Source: Cyanobacteriota bacterium (GTDB lineage: Bacteria; Cyanobacteriota; Cyanobacteriia; Thermostichales; Thermostichaceae). Taken from it: DNA of 57,747 bases. The notes beneath the pieces are model-generated. The model was not told where the DNA came from and searched no databases. It saw nothing but the letters and a program-made list of their open reading frames with translations. The stretch spans positions 1 to 57,747 of the forward strand of contig JANRIL010000002.1 of assembly GCA_033764955.1 (NCBI GenBank), written 5' to 3'. Numbering within the stretch: the first letter of the stretch is position 1; each line of letters starts with the position of its first letter. Below, piece after piece: positions 35,181-41,690 of the stretch. The translations under genes and the position numbers were made by a program.

Positions 35181-36980
35181 TTATTTTTGCTTGAGCACCA
35201 AGAGAGTAATGTCATCAAAAACTTTCTGAGTACCAATATGACCACGGACATCCTCAATCACGGCCTGACGGATCGCGGCGGCTGATTCCTGTTTATATTG
35301 CTGCACTATCCGGCAGAGGCGCTCTAGCCCATACAGTTCTCCATGAGGATTCTCCGCTTCGGTAACTCCATCTGTATACAAAACAACAACATCTCCTACT
35401 TCGAGTGTGAGTTCAGTTTTGAAGATAAAATCTTTGATTTCAGATTCTAAACCCACCGGAAACCCTAGATCAATAGTGTCAATTCGTTCAACATCTCCAT
35501 TGGTTCTAACCACGATCATCTCTTCGTGTTGGCCGGTCAATGTCAAGGATTTATCATAATAATCTAGTAAGGCCAGGGTGAGATTTTTGTCGGATCCCAT
35601 GCGTTGAATATTGTCATACATGGCTTGATTAAGAATATTGATGAACTGTCGAGAATCCGTTTCATTGCTTTTGAGTAAGGTTCGGACGGCCATTTGTGTC
35701 ATGATCATCACCATCCCGCTTTCCAATCCATGCCCCGTCACATCACCAATGCCAATTTTGACGCGACCATTGTGTTGCAAAACATCATAGTAGTCTCCAC
35801 CCACCTCATTGGCAGGCTCCATAAATCCCGCTATATCTAACCCTGGGATCCTCTCTAGCTCAGCCTCCTTAGGCAAGATTAACTGCTGTAGTTTGCGGGT
35901 CACCTCCAGTTCGGATCCCATCCGCAAGTTTTCCTCTTTGAGCCGCTCATAAAGATTAGAAATCTCAGCATTAGCTATCTGCAATTCATGGGTGCGTTGG
36001 GTGACTTTGGTCTCCAGATCGTGGGCATAGCTGCGAATCTCGGCAATCATCGAATTAAAGGCTTGCGCTAAAAGTCCCAACTCATCCTGAGATTTGACAG
36101 CCAGTGAAACATCAAAGTTTTTGGCTTGTACCTGCTCAGCGGCATCACGCAGTTGAGTAATAGGTTGCCCTAACCAACGGGCAATCAGTGCTGACAGCAG
36201 AATAGATAGCACCAACCCAGCTAAAATAATGGCATAACAGATATATTGCAAAGCTCTCAGTTGATTGGCTTCTGTTTGAGCATTATAGTCAACACCTAAA
36301 ACTGCTAAAACTTCCCCTTGAGAGTTTTTAATTGGTAAAGCTGCCGTGATCCAGGTACCATAAATATCTTTATAAATGCCAGTGGTTTGAGCCTCTCCCC
36401 CAAAGGTGCGGGCAAACACCTGATCACTAATCGCATAAGTATTTCCCAACGGATTACCCGGCCAATCTCCTATTTCTTCATGTCGAGAAGAGCCAATAAA
36501 ACGCAAAAATTGGTAATCAGGAAATTCAGGAATATTCACCATCAAGTATGTAGCCAAATTACTGGTTTCCCAGTCAGCTTGTGGGTAGAAATCTTGCAGA
36601 GGTTGGATATCTGATTGACTGACTTGCTCGATCCGCCGCAATAGCTGGACAATCCGTTGAAAATCTGGAGTTTGCATTGCCGCTGCGGCCACTGCTGGGA
36701 CTAATCCCAACTTGAATTCACCCGCTGGGATCCCTTGAATATCAGCGGTGGAGAGGATGGACTGTTCTTCCGTTAGGGTTTGCAAGCGCCGAATCGCTGC
36801 CTGATCTTCCTCCTCAAATTGAAAGCTAGCCATGTAGCCAATATCCCGTAGCCGCCCAGTAATCTGATTTTGCACAATAGTGTTCACCTGAGAGTAAAAC
36901 CAATACACCGCCGTGCTCGTCAACGTAATGGAGAGCGCGGTTGTGGCAAAACCTACTTTCAGGGCAAATGAGAATTTCAC
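35181..36980 (-). CDS. Membrane sensor, HAMP + SpoIIE/PP2C phosphatase
   Basis: Two TMs, DELGLLAQAFNSM, EVGGDYYD, IGDVTGHG, YTDGVTEA, DDITL. Confidence 0.92.
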   Translation of the reverse strand: MKFSFALKVGFATTALSITLTSTAVYWFYSQVNTIVQNQITGRLRDIGYMASFQFEEEDQAAIRRLQTLTEEQSILSTADIQGIPAGEFKLGLVPAVAAAAMQTPDFQRIVQLLRRIEQVSQSDIQPLQDFYPQADWETSNLATYLMVNIPEFPDYQFLRFIGSSRHEEIGDWPGNPLGNTYAISDQVFARTFGGEAQTTGIYKDIYGTWITAALPIKNSQGEVLAVLGVDYNAQTEANQLRALQYICYAIILAGLVLSILLSALIARWLGQPITQLRDAAEQVQAKNFDVSLAVKSQDELGLLAQAFNSMIAEIRSYAHDLETKVTQRTHELQIANAEISNLYERLKEENLRMGSELEVTRKLQQLILPKEAELERIPGLDIAGFMEPANEVGGDYYDVLQHNGRVKIGIGDVTGHGLESGMVMIMTQMAVRTLLKSNETDSRQFINILNQAMYDNIQRMGSDKNLTLALLDYYDKSLTLTGQHEEMIVVRTNGDVERIDTIDLGFPVGLESEIKDFIFKTELTLEVGDVVVLYTDGVTEAENPHGELYGLERLCRIVQQYKQESAAAIRQAVIEDVRGHIGTQKVFDDITLLVLKQK

Positions 36981-37183
36981 AGGAGGATAGGGGGAGAAGG
37001 AGATACCTGGAGTCTATGTGAATCATAGTATGCTCTTGGCGATGGTCTTCTTGTGTTTCGCTCTGCTAGGGATCCCCCTATCCCAGCCTAAAATAGAGGT
37101 GGACAGGCGACCTGGCTGGCTTCTCTTGAGGGGATCCCGGCATACGGAAGACCTGTGCTGATGCTCTTCCTGCTCTGAGGTTT

Positions 37184-38404
37184 ATGCAGACCCTAACTCC
37201 CCCTTCCCCTGTGACCGCCTATCCTGAATTGCACTATCCTCGCCGCCAAACCCGCACGGTGGCGGTGGGGGATGTCTTAATCGGCAGTGACCATCCGGTG
37301 GTCGTGCAGTCGATGATCAACGAGGATACCCTCGATATCGCGGGATCCGTGGCGGGGATTCGCCGCCTGCACGAAGTGGGATGTGAAATCGTGCGGGTGA
37401 CCGTGCCCAGTATGGCTCATGCCAAGGCGATGGAGCAGATTCGCGCCCAACTCATCCAAACCTACCAACCCGTGCCCTTGGTGGCGGATGTGCACCACAA
37501 TGGCGTAAAAATTGCCCTGGAAGTTGCCAAGCATGTAGATAAGGTGCGGATCAACCCTGGTTTGTATGTTTTTGAAAAGCCACAACCTGGACGCAGCGAC
37601 TATAGCCAAGCCGAATTTGATCAAATCCGCGACAAAATTCGGGAAACGTTTACCCCCCTGGTGATCAGCCTACGAGATCAAGGAAAAGCGATGCGGATTG
37701 GGGTTAATCATGGATCCCTAGCGGAACGGATGGTGTTCACCTACGGAGATACCCCGCTTGGCATGGTGGAGTCGGCGCTGGAGTTTGCCCACATTTGCCA
37801 CGATCTTGATTTTCATAACCTGGTCTTTTCCTTTAAGGCCGCTCGTCCACAGGTGATGCTGGCGGCTTATCGACTGGCGGCGCAGCGACTGGATGCGATT
37901 GGCTATCGTTACCCGTTGCATTTGGGGGTAACGGAAGCGGGGGATGGTGAGTATGGTCGGGTCAAATCAGCGGTAGGGATTGGCACCCTCTTAGCAGAAG
38001 GAATTGGGGATACGATTCGGGTCTCGCTGACAGAAGCCCCCGAAAAAGAAATTCCGGTAGCCTACGGCATTTTGCAAGCCCTCGGTATGCGGAAAACGAT
38101 GGTGGAATATGTGGCTTGCCCCTCCTGTGGACGCACGCTTTTTAATCTAGAGGAGGTATTGCACAAGGTTCGTTCGGCAACCTCCCACCTGACGGGACTC
38201 GACATCGCGGTCATGGGCTGTATCGTCAATGGCCCTGGGGAAATGGCGGATGCGGACTATGGCTATGTCGGCAAAACCCCAGGTATGATCTCCCTCTATC
38301 GGGGCAAAGACGAGGTGAAAAAAGTGCCGGAAGCAGAGGGAGTGACGGAGCTGATTGCCCTGATCAAAGCCGATGGACGTTGGGTGGATCCGCCAACGGT
38401 TTGA
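37184..38404 (+). CDS. ispG: HMBPP synthase
   Basis: [48 protein letters not shown]. Confidence 0.97.
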
Positions 38405-38544
38405 AGGGATCCCCCATCCCCAGAGTTGACCCCACAGGTTAGAGTGAGAGGGATCCTGGGGGGCTGTTACGCCCGGATCCCTTCCTCCTGGAAAATCGTC
38501 CATAAATCGTCCATAAGTTGTTTCGTGATTCTCAAGGTAAAGGC

Positions 38545-38745
38545 ATGAGCATATTTGGTATGGGTGTTCCTGAACTGGCGGTGATTGGGGTGATTGCGGT
38601 GGTTATCTTTGGCCCCAAAAAATTACCCGAACTGGGCAGCTCGATTGGTAAAGCCCTTAAAGGTTTTAAGCAGGAAATGAACGGCGTGAGCAGTCCTGAC
38701 GGCAAAGAGGCAACCCCCCCCTCCGAAAAGCAGGACGCCGCCTGA
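38545..38745 (+). CDS. tatA: Twin-arginine translocase subunit TatA/E
   Basis: FGMGVPEL...IFGPKKLPELGSSIGKALKGFK. Confidence 0.93.
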   Translation: MSIFGMGVPELAVIGVIAVVIFGPKKLPELGSSIGKALKGFKQEMNGVSSPDGKEATPPSEKQDAA

Positions 38746-38843
38746 GGATCCCTGATTATCTCAAAACAATGGGGATCGATACTTGCTTGTCTGGCGGAAT
38801 TGGGTATAGTGCGGGGAAGATCGCCCAAAGAACCTGAGAGAGC

Positions 38844-39716
38844 ATGGCAGAGCCAATGGATTTTGAATTGATGGCACAAATCCAGGCGCGGGAGCGGCGT
38901 GCCCACTTTATGCTTAAGGATCGCTACCATAAGCGGCTGCTGGAGATTGCTTTTGCCATTTTGCGAAATCCCCACCATGCCGAAGAGGTGGTCAGGCAGG
39001 TCTTTGAGTTTTCCTGGCGGCAGGCGGAGGTGTTCGACCTAGAACGGGATCCCTCCGTCGCCATTTGGCTATACGAGTTGACCCGCTTGTTTGCTCAAGA
39101 ACGGCTCAACCGTTGGGGCTGGTTCAAAAAATCCCGCCCCTCCTCCCTTCCCTCCCAGTCTGCGGACAAAACCCCTTGGTCGTGGAGCCTTAAGCTGTTT
39201 GTGCTGGGGCTGGCTGCCTATGGGCTGGTCATCACCTGGCAGTATTGGCAAATTCGCCAGACATGGCTCACCTATATTGACCAAGCGGCTCAAGAGGTGC
39301 AACGGCTCTACCAAAGCTGGATCCGCCAGCCAAATGTTCAAGAAGTCTTGCTGCGGGATCCCTCCCTCCGCACGGATCGTCTAGCCCAAGGGCTCTGGTC
39401 ATCCCAAGCTCGTCGTTTGATTTTGTTCTCCAATAATCTGGCGGCAGCTCCCCCTGGGCAGGCTTATCATGTCTGGGTGGAAGATAACGCCGCGTCCCCC
39501 CAACCTGGGATCCCTAGCAAAACAGTGGAGTTTGCCGGATCCCTCACCTTTGCCCAAGATGGGACGTTGCAATGGGCTAGTCCTGCCCTACAAACCGCTC
39601 AACCGGATCGGCTGGTGATCACCCTAGAGTCTGTCAATCATCAGGATCTCCCCACTGGGGAAGTGGTTCTAGAGAGCCGTCTACCCGCTCTTTCGGCTCA
39701 GCCCACTAGCCCCTAA
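38844..39716 (+). CDS. Fusion of ECF sigma region 2-like domain, TM helix and RskA-type anti-sigma C-terminal domain
   Basis: DFELMAQI...DRY...AFAILRNPHHAEEVVRQVF..W..A..FD..R....WL....R; TM LFVLGLAAYGLVITW; PPGQAYHVW...ITLE...PTGEVVL. Confidence 0.75.
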   Translation: MAEPMDFELMAQIQARERRAHFMLKDRYHKRLLEIAFAILRNPHHAEEVVRQVFEFSWRQAEVFDLERDPSVAIWLYELTRLFAQERLNRWGWFKKSRPSSLPSQSADKTPWSWSLKLFVLGLAAYGLVITWQYWQIRQTWLTYIDQAAQEVQRLYQSWIRQPNVQEVLLRDPSLRTDRLAQGLWSSQARRLILFSNNLAAAPPGQAYHVWVEDNAASPQPGIPSKTVEFAGSLTFAQDGTLQWASPALQTAQPDRLVITLESVNHQDLPTGEVVLESRLPALSAQPTSP

Positions 39717-39747
39717 GTTGTATAAACAAACCCCTAAACAACTCAAC

Positions 39748-39951
39748 ATGGCTTCTGAGCAACACCAAGCCGATCAGCAGGATGGGATTGTAGCTCGGCT
39801 TTTGGCAGAGTTGAAAGATGAGCAAAAGTGGGAAGCCCGTTTTGCTGGCACGACAAACGAGCAGTGGGATCAGATGGCTGCAATGGTACGTCAACAAATT
39901 GAAAGTGGGGTGACCGTTGCGCTGAATGCAGTTTTTCCATCGCAGAAATGA
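39748..39951 (+). CDS. Putative antitoxin, possibly N-terminally damaged
   Basis: LLAELKDEQKWEARFA; ATGA overlap with the toxin. Confidence 0.6.
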   Translation: MASEQHQADQQDGIVARLLAELKDEQKWEARFAGTTNEQWDQMAAMVRQQIESGVTVALNAVFPSQK

Positions 39952-40207
39952 AATCAAGTGTCACTAAAACGTTTCGTAAGCTGTCGAACGATCTTCCGGC
40001 ATCGGTTCAGGAGCAAGCGGCAAAAACATATACACTCTGGCAAGAAAATCCCTATCATCCTGGCCTTCAGTTCAAACGAGTTAGCTAACAACAACCGATA
40101 TACTCTGCGCGTGTCAGTCTTAACTATCGTGTTCTAGGTTTGTTGGTATTTACTGGTATTGGATTGGCGCACATGATGAATATGATGATTTTCTCAAGCA
40201 GATGTAG
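39948..40207 (+). pseudogene. RelE/ParE-like toxin pseudogene
   Basis: MKSSVTKTFRKL...NPYHPGLQFKRVS*QQPIYSARVSLNYRVLG, then a frameshift to YWYWIGAHDEYD; TAA at 40086. Confidence 0.8.
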
Positions 40208-40230
40208 TTTAAGGGATCTGTAGAGACTCG

Positions 40231-40316
40231 GCATAACAACACAGTGGAGCAGACGGTATTAAGCTCTCCGCCCATTGCCAAAATTATCCACCGCCAGCTC
40301 ACTTCAGCCGTTGTGC
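40231..40316 (+). other. attC site (integron cassette recombination site)
   Basis: R'' GCATAAC, L'' AGTG(G)AGC, L' GCTCACT, R' GTTGTGC; 86 bp. Confidence 0.8.
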
Positions 40317-40412
40317 CGCTTCACATCTTGGCGAGGACGGTACTCCAATTTCACTGTTGTAGGAAAGAGACTTTAAGATCAAGTCAGTGCATCATAACTG
40401 AGAGGCGAAGTA

Positions 40413-41690
40413 GTGAGCCGAATTGTTTTAACCACCATTGGCTCCTTTGGTGATTTGCATCCCAAAATTGCGATCGCGCTTGAGCTACGAAAGCGTGGTC
40501 ATGATGTCGTGTTTGCAACTCACAAAGAATATCAGGATAAGGTTGAGGCTCTCGGTTTCGCGTATCGTCGGATGCGCCCTGACAACACGGCGCTTAATGA
40601 TCCTGAAGAAATGGCGCAGATGATGGATTTGAAAACGGGCACAGAGTATGTCATCAAAAATTGGGTATGTGCGAACTTACATGAAACCTATACCGATTTG
40701 ATGGATAGTGCTAAAGATGCAGATTTCATCATTACAGGTGAAGGAGTTGTAGCGGCTCGCTTGGTAGCAGAAAAGTTAGAAATTCCGTGGGCATTTGCTG
40801 CCCTACAGCCTGCCTCATTTCTGTCGGTTTATGATCCATCCGTCTTGCCTGTGCTGCCGTTTCTTGCCAAGTTCCGTGGGCTAGGTTCGCTGGCTAACCG
40901 AGGCATCATTCAATTATCAAAAGTATTGTCTAAGTCCTGGGCAGAGCCAATCCATCAATTGCGGCAGGAGATCGGCTTGCCACCTCTGACAGGGAATCCA
41001 TTTATTGATGATAAATATTCACCGTATCTTGTACTGGCACTGTTCTCTTCAGTCTTCGCAAAGCCTCAGCCCGACTGGGCAAAAAATACGGTACTCACTG
41101 GCTTTGCATTCTATGACGGCAGCGAGGGTAAGACAGAACTTACACCGGAACTTCAGCAGTTTTTGGATAGGGGCGATCCCCCAATCGTTTTTACTTTAGG
41201 TTCAGCCGCAGTCATGACTCCTGGACGTTTTTTCCAGGCGAGTGTTGAAGCTGTAACGCAACTGAATCGCCGTGCTGTTTTACTGATGGGTGAAAATGCT
41301 CATCCAAATGATTTGCCAGAGACCGTATTTACCATGAGTTATGTTCCATACTCTCAAATTTTTCCGCGTGCTTGTGCAATCGTCCATCAAGGTGGTGTTG
41401 GCACGACAGCCCAAGCATTACGGGCAGGTCGTCCAACTCTTGTAATGCCTTATAGTCATGATCAGCCAGATAACGCAGCTAGAGTTGAACGTTTGGGAAC
41501 ATCGCGGACGATTCCTCGAAATCAGTACACAGCAGAACGAGTAGCCAAACAATTACGCCAGTTATTAGGAAATCCAAGTTATGCAGCTAAAGCTTTAGAA
41601 ATTGGAGGTATTATCCGAGCAGAAAATGGGGTTGGTGTAGCGTGTGATGCGATTGAAAAGCAACTTCAAGCCGCCTCAATCTCGTCGTAA
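40413..41690 (+). CDS. GT1-family glycosyltransferase (sterol/rhamnosyl/macrolide-type), cassette-borne
   Basis: TIGSFGDLHP, FTLGSA, VHQGGVGTT, PYSHDQPDNA. Confidence 0.9.
   Translation: MSRIVLTTIGSFGDLHPKIAIALELRKRGHDVVFATHKEYQDKVEALGFAYRRMRPDNTALNDPEEMAQMMDLKTGTEYVIKNWVCANLHETYTDLMDSAKDADFIITGEGVVAARLVAEKLEIPWAFAALQPASFLSVYDPSVLPVLPFLAKFRGLGSLANRGIIQLSKVLSKSWAEPIHQLRQEIGLPPLTGNPFIDDKYSPYLVLALFSSVFAKPQPDWAKNTVLTGFAFYDGSEGKTELTPELQQFLDRGDPPIVFTLGSAAVMTPGRFFQASVEAVTQLNRRAVLLMGENAHPNDLPETVFTMSYVPYSQIFPRACAIVHQGGVGTTAQALRAGRPTLVMPYSHDQPDNAARVERLGTSRTIPRNQYTAERVAKQLRQLLGNPSYAAKALEIGGIIRAENGVGVACDAIEKQLQAASISS

Follow-up and report, generated by a model that had tools for sequence, protein, structure and literature searches.

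The gene described here lies on a stretch of DNA of 57,747 nucleotides from a cyanobacterium of the Thermostichaceae (hereafter the window; positions 1 to 57,747 of contig JANRIL010000002.1, GenBank assembly GCA_033764955.1). It encodes a protein of 290 residues in which a sigma-2 domain of the extracytoplasmic function (ECF) type is joined, through a short linker and a single membrane helix, to an outer domain of the RskA_C type. The protein is neither an ECF sigma factor, as it lacks region 4 (sigma-4), nor a class I anti-sigma factor, as it lacks an anti-sigma domain. The gene is lineage-specific, vertically inherited and under purifying selection in the GTDB family to which the genome belongs (f1). 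We lean, by a modest degree, towards the view that the cytoplasmic head mimics sigma-2 and, under the control of the outer domain, competes for a protein partner instead of reading promoters.

Domain architecture and predicted fold

The gene and its parts, all on the + strand, are as follows.

38844..39716, +: whole gene, ATG start, 290 residues, intact open reading frame (ORF) in the order sigma-2, linker, transmembrane helix, RskA_C
38856..39128, +: residues 5-95, cytoplasmic ECF-type sigma-2 fold (Pfam, NCBIfam, AlphaFold2, Foldseek, residue counts)
39129..39179, +: residues 96-112, poorly conserved linker of low confidence (predicted local distance difference test, pLDDT; pairwise identity)
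39180..39245, +: residues 113-134, single hydrophobic membrane helix (Kyte-Doolittle; part of the AlphaFold2 helix 112-160)
39246..39323, +: residues 135-160, outer-side extension of the membrane helix (AlphaFold2 helix 112-160)
39336..39680, +: residues 165-279, RskA_C-type β-sandwich, presumably periplasmic (Pfam RskA_C; eight AlphaFold2 strands)

The Pfam model Sigma70_r2 matches residues 26-89 (E 6.3e-06; 26.3 bits against a cut-off of 24), and many ECF sigma models of NCBIfam match the protein, all of them limited to residues 2-93. RskA_C matches residues 132-273 of the window protein with an E-value of 2.6e-4 and 21.7 bits, below its cut-off of 29.4. The same domain is precomputed in 21 of the 23 listed family proteins from the search for relatives, and it exceeds the cut-off in four of five further family members scanned, P0025 scoring 29.2 against 29.4. 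A Pfam scan of the protein up to an E-value of 10 gave no Sigma70_r4 or Sigma70_r4_2, zf-HC2, RskA_N or receiver domain, and six-frame searches of the genome with PF08281 and PF04545 (E <= 0.1) gave no sigma-4 match inside the gene.

The AlphaFold2 model, built on the family alignment with a mean pLDDT of 84.2, has four helices in the head (residues 6-14, 18-40, 43-59 and 72-95), followed by the long helix 112-160 and eight strands within residues 165-279. The sigma-2 part is predicted with a pLDDT of 86-97 in blocks of ten residues, and the linker at residues 96-109 falls below 50. The gap between the sigma-2 domain and the membrane helix is only about 17 residues. Structural similarity search against the PDB using Foldseek gave region 2 of E. 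coli sigmaE (5or5) as the top match, with a TM-score by target of 0.88 and a root-mean-square deviation of 1.8 Å, followed by SigW, AlgU, SigK and others. The C-terminal sandwich has a weak likeness to sandwiches of the Cu/Zn superoxide dismutase and CrdA types.

One hydrophobic 19-mer per protein was found at the same place in all 13 members tested on the Kyte-Doolittle scale. In the window protein its maximum lies at residues 113-131 with a borderline value of 1.53 (1.56-2.11 in the relatives), and a second hydrophobic segment is absent. A twin-arginine signal before the membrane helix was considered and rejected, the RR pair beside the helix not being conserved. The RskA_C domain is presumably on the outer side, judging from the domain positions and from the family member P0024 (516 residues, on a 9-kb contig), which has SLH domains after RskA_C. 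Through these SLH domains the outer end would be fastened to the cell wall or to the layer of the outer membrane; alternatively, P0024 could be a read-through of two genes.

Altogether, these results bear out a preliminary description of this DNA, made from the letters alone, which had recognized an intact ORF with a sigma-2 region, a transmembrane helix and an RskA-type domain, and had noted the lack in it of both a sigma-4 and a cytoplasmic anti-sigma domain.

Conservation and selection

A word-indexed search found 22 relatives of 268-329 residues and 37-49% identity; some of them carry the source name 'anti-sigma factor' and come from Thermostichus and hot-spring Synechococcus. An exhaustive profile search, which covered 1.84 billion representatives, returned nine proteins at E <= 1e-30, all colinear and all without region 4, after which the next match drops to 1.8e-16. 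Within family f1 the gene is a full-length, stop-free single copy in 21 of 23 genomes, its own included, from all eight genera, and is missing only from G024 and G025 (2.2-2.4 Mb, 99% complete). Whole-genome searches of the sister family found it in none of seven genomes. In an even sample of 301 cyanobacterial genomes, five had a match at E <= 1e-12. Two of these are full-length and belong to f1; the other three are ordinary ECF sigmas of 191-194 residues, matched in their sigma-2 part only. No full-length copy was found in the 299 sampled genomes outside f1.

In G024, a Thermostichus-type genome lacking the gene, tatA is directly followed by a 121-residue ORF (L040, contig C15, 1465-2282), and the same ORF in locus L016 sits beyond the fused gene and a 361-residue ORF. 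This order indicates secondary loss and is consistent with a deletion of the fused gene together with the 361-residue ORF.

The ratio of nonsynonymous to synonymous substitution rates (dN/dS) was computed by the NG86 method for 12 sequences (66 pairs), of which 17 pairs had a dS below 1.5, 16 of them among relatives. In these 16 pairs the ratio is 0.08-0.18 for the whole gene, 0.04-0.12 for the sigma-2 part, 0.10-0.39 for the linker plus transmembrane helix and 0.05-0.20 for RskA_C. The sole qualifying pair with the window protein (WIN-L019, dS 1.4) gave 0.23, 0.45 and 0.39 for the three parts, respectively. Mean pairwise identity is 68% in the sigma-2 part, 50% in RskA_C and 38% in the linker plus transmembrane helix. 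With the highest identity and the lowest dN/dS, the sigma-2 head is thus the most constrained part of the protein.

The preliminary description had left two alternatives, a recent in-frame deletion fusion of a sigK-rskA operon or a conserved one-component regulator. The second has held up in these data, and the first is excluded for the f1 family, whose members carry the same fused gene after tatA and not separate sigK and rskA genes at this place.

Remodelled residues of the sigma-2 head

Residues were compared between 28 family proteins and 68 other sigma-2 domains, the latter being the non-family top matches of the family-profile search with identical motif rows collapsed, and hence a biased rather than a random set. 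Region 2.2 reads AEEVVRQVF in place of the usual AED..QE.F, a substitution that the preliminary description had picked out in the window protein and that proves typical of the family. The acid of the 'Q-E/D' pair in this region is present in 64 of the 68 other domains and in one of the 28 family proteins, 25 of which have Q there. The preceding residue is Q in 54 of the 68 others; in the family it is Q in five and R in 21 of 28.

The specificity loop and region 2.4 helix of the window protein read FDLERDPSVAIWLYELTRLFAQERLNRW. Counting from the tryptophan (W) at the start of the last helix, W+6 is R or H in 51 of 57 others compared to three of 28 family members, and W+7, the wedge position of sigmaH N88, is mostly N, S or H in the others and F in 24 of 28 family members. 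Similarly, W+8 is R or K in 36 of 55 others and never in the 28 family proteins, and W+10 is I, L or V in 44 of 53 others and R, Q or K in 25 of 28 family proteins. By contrast with these exchanges from the canonical state, D65, S71, V72, A73, W75, L76 and Y77, in the specificity loop and at the start of the last helix, are invariant in the family. The DAED window has two acids in 19 of the 28 members, one in seven, none in one and three in one.

These positions fall on surfaces with assigned roles. According to PMC8103513, sigma meets the core enzyme mainly through the contact between its region 2.2 and the β' subunit, where the acidic DAED motif, which the holoenzyme needs in order to form, faces clamp helices of positive charge. 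Given this charge and the essential acids, the change from Q-E to R-Q should weaken β' binding. [quoted passage not shown] In sigmaH, W81, I85, N88, I91 and N92 form the pockets and the wedge that read or melt the -10 element (PMC6411747). The family has thus remodelled precisely those surfaces through which canonical ECF sigmas meet polymerase, anti-sigma factor and DNA, and has since kept the new version fixed. A complex prediction of the head (family alignment, residues 1-100) with residues 240-345 of RpoC1, which make up the clamp helices, scored 0.01 against a mark of 0.32 and, being run without controls, is evidence neither way.

ECF systems of the genome

The genome (3.8 Mb, 89% complete) has 13 sigma-2 matches and two RskA_C matches. 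One RskA_C match is the fused gene itself, and the other belongs to the canonical pair of contig C44, where a 200-residue sigma is followed by a 258-residue RskA-type protein. There are also a ChrR/cupin-coupled ECF pair on C46 and an RpoE-like system on C47. The latter is a conserved three-gene unit of 17 of the 23 f1 genomes (L008, C47 265-1773; L035, contig C58 of G017, 773-2066), comprising an RpoE-like ECF sigma, a small single-pass membrane protein with no Pfam match and a periplasmic LTXXQ/Metal_resist protein. Locus L012 on C11 encodes a 410-residue sigma (1462-2694) that has sigma-2, a region 4 of weak score and an extended C-terminus, with a 113-residue ORF ahead of it (485-826). Without a Pfam scan, this sigma looks like one of the ECF42 type, which has a TPR extension and a YCII-like neighbour.

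By pairwise scores, made without a tree, identity of the head is highest with the C46 sigma (41%, E 5e-12), ahead of the C44 sigma (30%) and the C47 sigma (25%); the RskA_C part bears only a faint likeness to the RskA-type protein of the same genome (E 0.063). The nearness of the head to the ChrR/cupin-coupled sigma means that the gene did not simply arise as 'sigK-rskA minus its middle'. A simple derivation from the RskA-coupled operon is thus unsupported. The closest sigma-2 relatives in other cyanobacteria are plain ECF sigmas of about 190 residues; the one in L033 has next to it a ChrR-like partner that, judged from its sequence and not by Pfam, has no RskA-type outer domain, and for L031 a partner ORF is not listed.

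Several short sigma-4-like frames were rejected as partners, having no link to the gene: an 88-residue LuxR-type helix-turn-helix (HTH) protein on C20, a 111-residue HTH protein on C11 and a 51-residue ORF in the window. The first of these (L028, C20 1852-2118, - strand) is a stand-alone LuxR/GerE-type HTH protein above the cut-off of Sigma70_r4_2, a case that shows how small proteins of the LuxR type, too, can be caught by region 4 models.

Proposed role of the sigma-2 head

In the model that we favour, an RskA_C-type sensor outside the membrane would set the availability of a cytoplasmic pseudo-sigma head. The tether would be cleaved under regulation, by analogy with IutY-type hybrids and RskA-type anti-sigma factors, and the head, no longer a promoter-reading module, would compete for a protein that normally grips sigma-2. 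The residue pattern seems to favour such a competitor or decoy role over a working half-sigma. As to the partner, our preference goes tentatively to a class I anti-sigma domain or another sigma-2-binding protein other than the polymerase, which would follow the anti-anti-sigma logic of PhyR. A second sub-variant, in which the head keeps a weakened or altered grip on the β' clamp helices of RNA polymerase and so competes with sigma factors, is in our judgement rather unlikely.

Some observations weigh against the competitor model. Position 51, a predicted anti-sigma contact, is itself changed, so that the canonical grip of an anti-sigma domain is not guaranteed. Two acids in the DAED window of most members, the retained W and W+4 and the invariant loop would also fit binding to RNA polymerase and DNA. 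The set of other sigma-2 domains used for comparison consists of top profile matches and is not random, and cleavage of the tether is assumed from the analogues. Moreover, neither co-occurrence nor the sigma-4 scan yielded a partner. The C44-type RskA pair is found in 22 of the 23 f1 genomes; it is absent from G017, in which the fused gene encodes the only RskA_C protein, and present in both genomes lacking the fused gene. The C47 RpoE-like system occurs in 17 of 23 genomes, and true orthologs of the C46 ChrR-coupled pair (55-61% identity) in eight of 23. None of the three systems shares the phyletic pattern of the gene, which argues against a dedicated ECF partner, and this candidate was rejected. 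In favour of the model, on the other hand, at least one ECF/anti-sigma system is present in every genome holding the fused gene.

The head could instead be a working half-sigma that is cut off the membrane, docks onto the β' clamp and reads a -10-like element, together with a separate sigma-4 in the manner of SigO-RsoA or alone at special promoters. Its intact sigma-2 fold in AlphaFold2 and Foldseek would suit this, as would the invariant specificity loop and W/L pocket positions, the two DAED acids in 19 of 28 members and the standing of sigma-2 alone as the main core-binding module, known generally and from PMC8103513. However, 27 of 28 members have lost the acid of region 2.2, and in region 2.4 the basic and polar-wedge residues and the equivalent of I91 have been replaced. 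In addition, a stand-alone sigma-4 partner, contemplated in the preliminary description, was not found by six-frame searches (PF08281 and PF04545) of the 89%-complete genome, and no conserved sigma-4 gene stands beside the fused gene in 11 related loci. We consider a working half-sigma quite unlikely.

Genomic neighbourhood

Two further features lie upstream of the gene.

38545..38745, +: tatA, conserved upstream neighbour (Pfam TatA_B_E, E 1.2e-18)
38802..38811, +: -10-like box GGGTATAGTG in the spacer between tatA and the gene (alignment; a lead only)

In the window, as at 10 of 11 related loci, the gene is immediately preceded on the same strand by tatA, and this holds despite differing outer flanks; ispG precedes tatA in L023 and L024 only. 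No other gene of the TatA/B/E family was detected in the genome (G000). L025 has, about 2 kb upstream and on the opposite strand, a gene that resembles tatC by its sequence, judged without a family scan. Downstream neighbours are unrelated across the window and the 11 loci, and a cognate ECF sigma gene is not adjacent. A scan for consensus promoters and terminators found no promoter and no + strand terminator-like site between tatA and the gene. The -10-like box, with related boxes of the form GTGTAT[AT]TT aligned in the spacers of L015-L020 and L025, suggests that the gene may have its own promoter. Rfam at gathering thresholds gave no matches in 37000-41000.

This neighbourhood bears on another possibility, namely that the head is only a folded cytoplasmic plug and that the function resides in the membrane and outer parts, for example as a co-sensor alongside RskA-type anti-sigma factors or in connection with Tat export. 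The persistence of tatA next to the gene, its uniqueness in the genome and the lack of a terminator-like site between the two speak for it. Nevertheless, the head is the most conserved part of the protein, with the lowest dN/dS and with family-specific invariant surface motifs; the gene may have a promoter of its own, and adjacency to tatA alone is no proof of shared function. We give the plug little probability.

The palindrome GGGATCCC occurs 89 times in the window, compared to 2.39 copies expected from shuffles. Three copies lie inside the ORF, which the preliminary description had already noted as host-type sites, and those near the gene are at 38406, 39046, 39355 and 39507. GGGATCCC is a highly over-represented, genome-typical octamer, presumably akin to the HIP1 palindrome known from other cyanobacteria.

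Elsewhere in the window, a 599-residue protein with HAMP and SpoIIE-type PP2C phosphatase domains (35181-36980, - strand) is encoded two genes upstream; it is a membrane-linked phosphatase of the type found in partner-switching cascades. Directly downstream of the gene is a 67-residue ORF with no Pfam match (39748-39951, + strand), at whose stop codon another short ORF apparently begins. These two could be a small addiction-type module.

Comparison with similar proteins and known systems

We scanned 28 non-family proteins, chosen mainly for two matched stretches and not at random. Eighteen of them combine sigma-2 with RskA_C and lack region 4, and in one of the eighteen zf-HC2/RskA_N lies in between; eight have sigma-2, region 4 and RskA_C, and two have RskA_C only. 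Seven of the 18 leave no room for a hidden region 4, including P0146 and P0030, whose clusters are on contigs of 1.6 Mb and 5.2 Mb. Judging from their domain content, the same sigma-4-less design recurs in distant proteins: P0086, P0117, P0146, P0169, P0033 and P0070 (the last in a cluster named from Bryobacteraceae) resemble the family in the order sigma-2, membrane helix and RskA_C. P0086 is colinear with the family over 239 columns, with an hhalign probability of 97.5 and 23% identity. They differ from the family in their canonical Q-E pair and, for the most part, in a shorter last helix of sigma-2. They are unnamed or bear automatic names only, and the likeness is one of design, not established common descent. 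P0030 (228 residues) has a sigma-2 domain truncated after the specificity loop and joined to a coiled coil and RskA_C without a membrane helix; unlike the window family, it looks like a fresh deletion within an operon.

That the window gene itself is a decaying relic of a sigma/anti-sigma operon, left without function by an in-frame deletion, might be imagined from the usual adjacency of such genes, as on C44, and from fusions such as P0030, but is contradicted by full-length, stop-free copies in 21 of 23 genomes and eight genera and by a whole-gene dN/dS of 0.08-0.18 in 16 pairs, and with conserved synteny and host-type palindromes inside the ORF besides, it is hardly credible.

Proteins of the order sigma-2, sigma-4, membrane helix and RskA_C (P0037, P0052, P0056, P0073 and others) share the arrangement of the window family, whereas they keep sigma-4 and the canonical Q-D/E pair, both of which the family lacks. 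The sigma-2 domain of P0037 matches the family profile with an hhalign probability of 98.4 and 34% identity. Searches of the ESM Atlas gave leads only, as all feature matches were below 0.9 and all structure matches had a TM-score by query below 0.5. They include clusters of about 320-360 residues with sigma-2 plus sigma-4 in Myxococcota and Chloroflexota, one of which aligns structurally with the RskA_C part below the bar for family naming, and a 564-residue Sigma70_r2 plus RskA_C cluster of 60 members from Pseudomonadota.

Among known systems, the protein fits best with the membrane-tethered sigma/anti-sigma hybrids, as a variant without sigma-4, and some of its features are reminiscent of the sigma mimicry of PhyR. 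The hybrid IutY of Pseudomonas putida (ECF243) is released from the membrane by Prc and RseP (PMC8999054), and groups ECF48, ECF52 and ECF53 are ECF sigmas with membrane-spanning C-terminal extensions (PMC5411451). Like the window protein, IutY-like hybrids are single polypeptides that run from an inner sigma part through one membrane helix to an outer domain of anti-sigma type. The sigma of IutY, however, is complete, with sigma-4 besides sigma-2, and its outer part is of the FecR type, whereas the window protein lacks sigma-4 and has RskA_C outside; release by proteolysis, known for IutY, is proposed here by analogy only.

The SigK-RskA pair of Mycobacterium tuberculosis (PDB 4NQW) and the C44 pair share with the window protein the ECF-type sigma-2, the single membrane helix and the RskA_C outer domain. 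They differ in being encoded by two genes, with an N-terminal anti-sigma domain that grips sigma-2 and sigma-4 (PMC7406223). The window protein has a sigma-2 domain where the RskA type has its anti-sigma domain, and no sigma gene is adjacent. The likeness to PhyR of Alphaproteobacteria, a sigma mimic acting as an anti-anti-sigma factor, would lie in a sigma-like domain without sigma function that serves as a decoy. PhyR, however, is a soluble protein that resembles sigma-2 in one part and sigma-4 in another and is controlled through a receiver domain, compared to the lone sigma-2, tether and outer sensor domain of the window protein, for which no partner like PhyR's NepR is known. SigO-RsoA of Bacillus subtilis is a two-subunit sigma in which a sigma-2-only polypeptide is a separate functional unit. 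RsoA is soluble and encoded beside its sigma-4-bearing partner, whereas no such partner was found for the window protein in its genome. In the literature covered, which left out most subscription journals and supplements, no description of a sigma-2-only/RskA_C protein was found.

Significance

Bacterial stress responses are switched chiefly through sigma factors and the proteins that antagonize them. For the ECF classification, a protein must carry the Pfam domain for sigma-2 as well as that for sigma-4 (PMC7826278), so that sigma-2-only forms were excluded by design, and fusions such as the present one lie outside the large ECF surveys. The protein described here, long fixed in a deep-branching cyanobacterial family, shows that sigma-2 on its own can serve a membrane sensor as a functional unit under selection.

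With considerable reserve, we put forward that sigma-2-only membrane proteins might be a class of signal transducers that has escaped notice. A signal from the envelope, perceived through RskA_C, would free or expose the pseudo-sigma-2 head, which would titrate an anti-sigma domain or the polymerase clamp and so reset sigma competition. Such a protein would be a phosphorylation-free, membrane-coupled counterpart of PhyR, would have originated repeatedly from sigma/anti-sigma operons in several phyla, and would in this family be connected with the tatA locus. Should the decoy or competitor model prove true, it would represent a new wiring principle in which sigma mimicry is coupled directly to an envelope sensor, and it would give meaning to many proteins of like build in other phyla that are automatically named 'anti-sigma factor domain-containing'.

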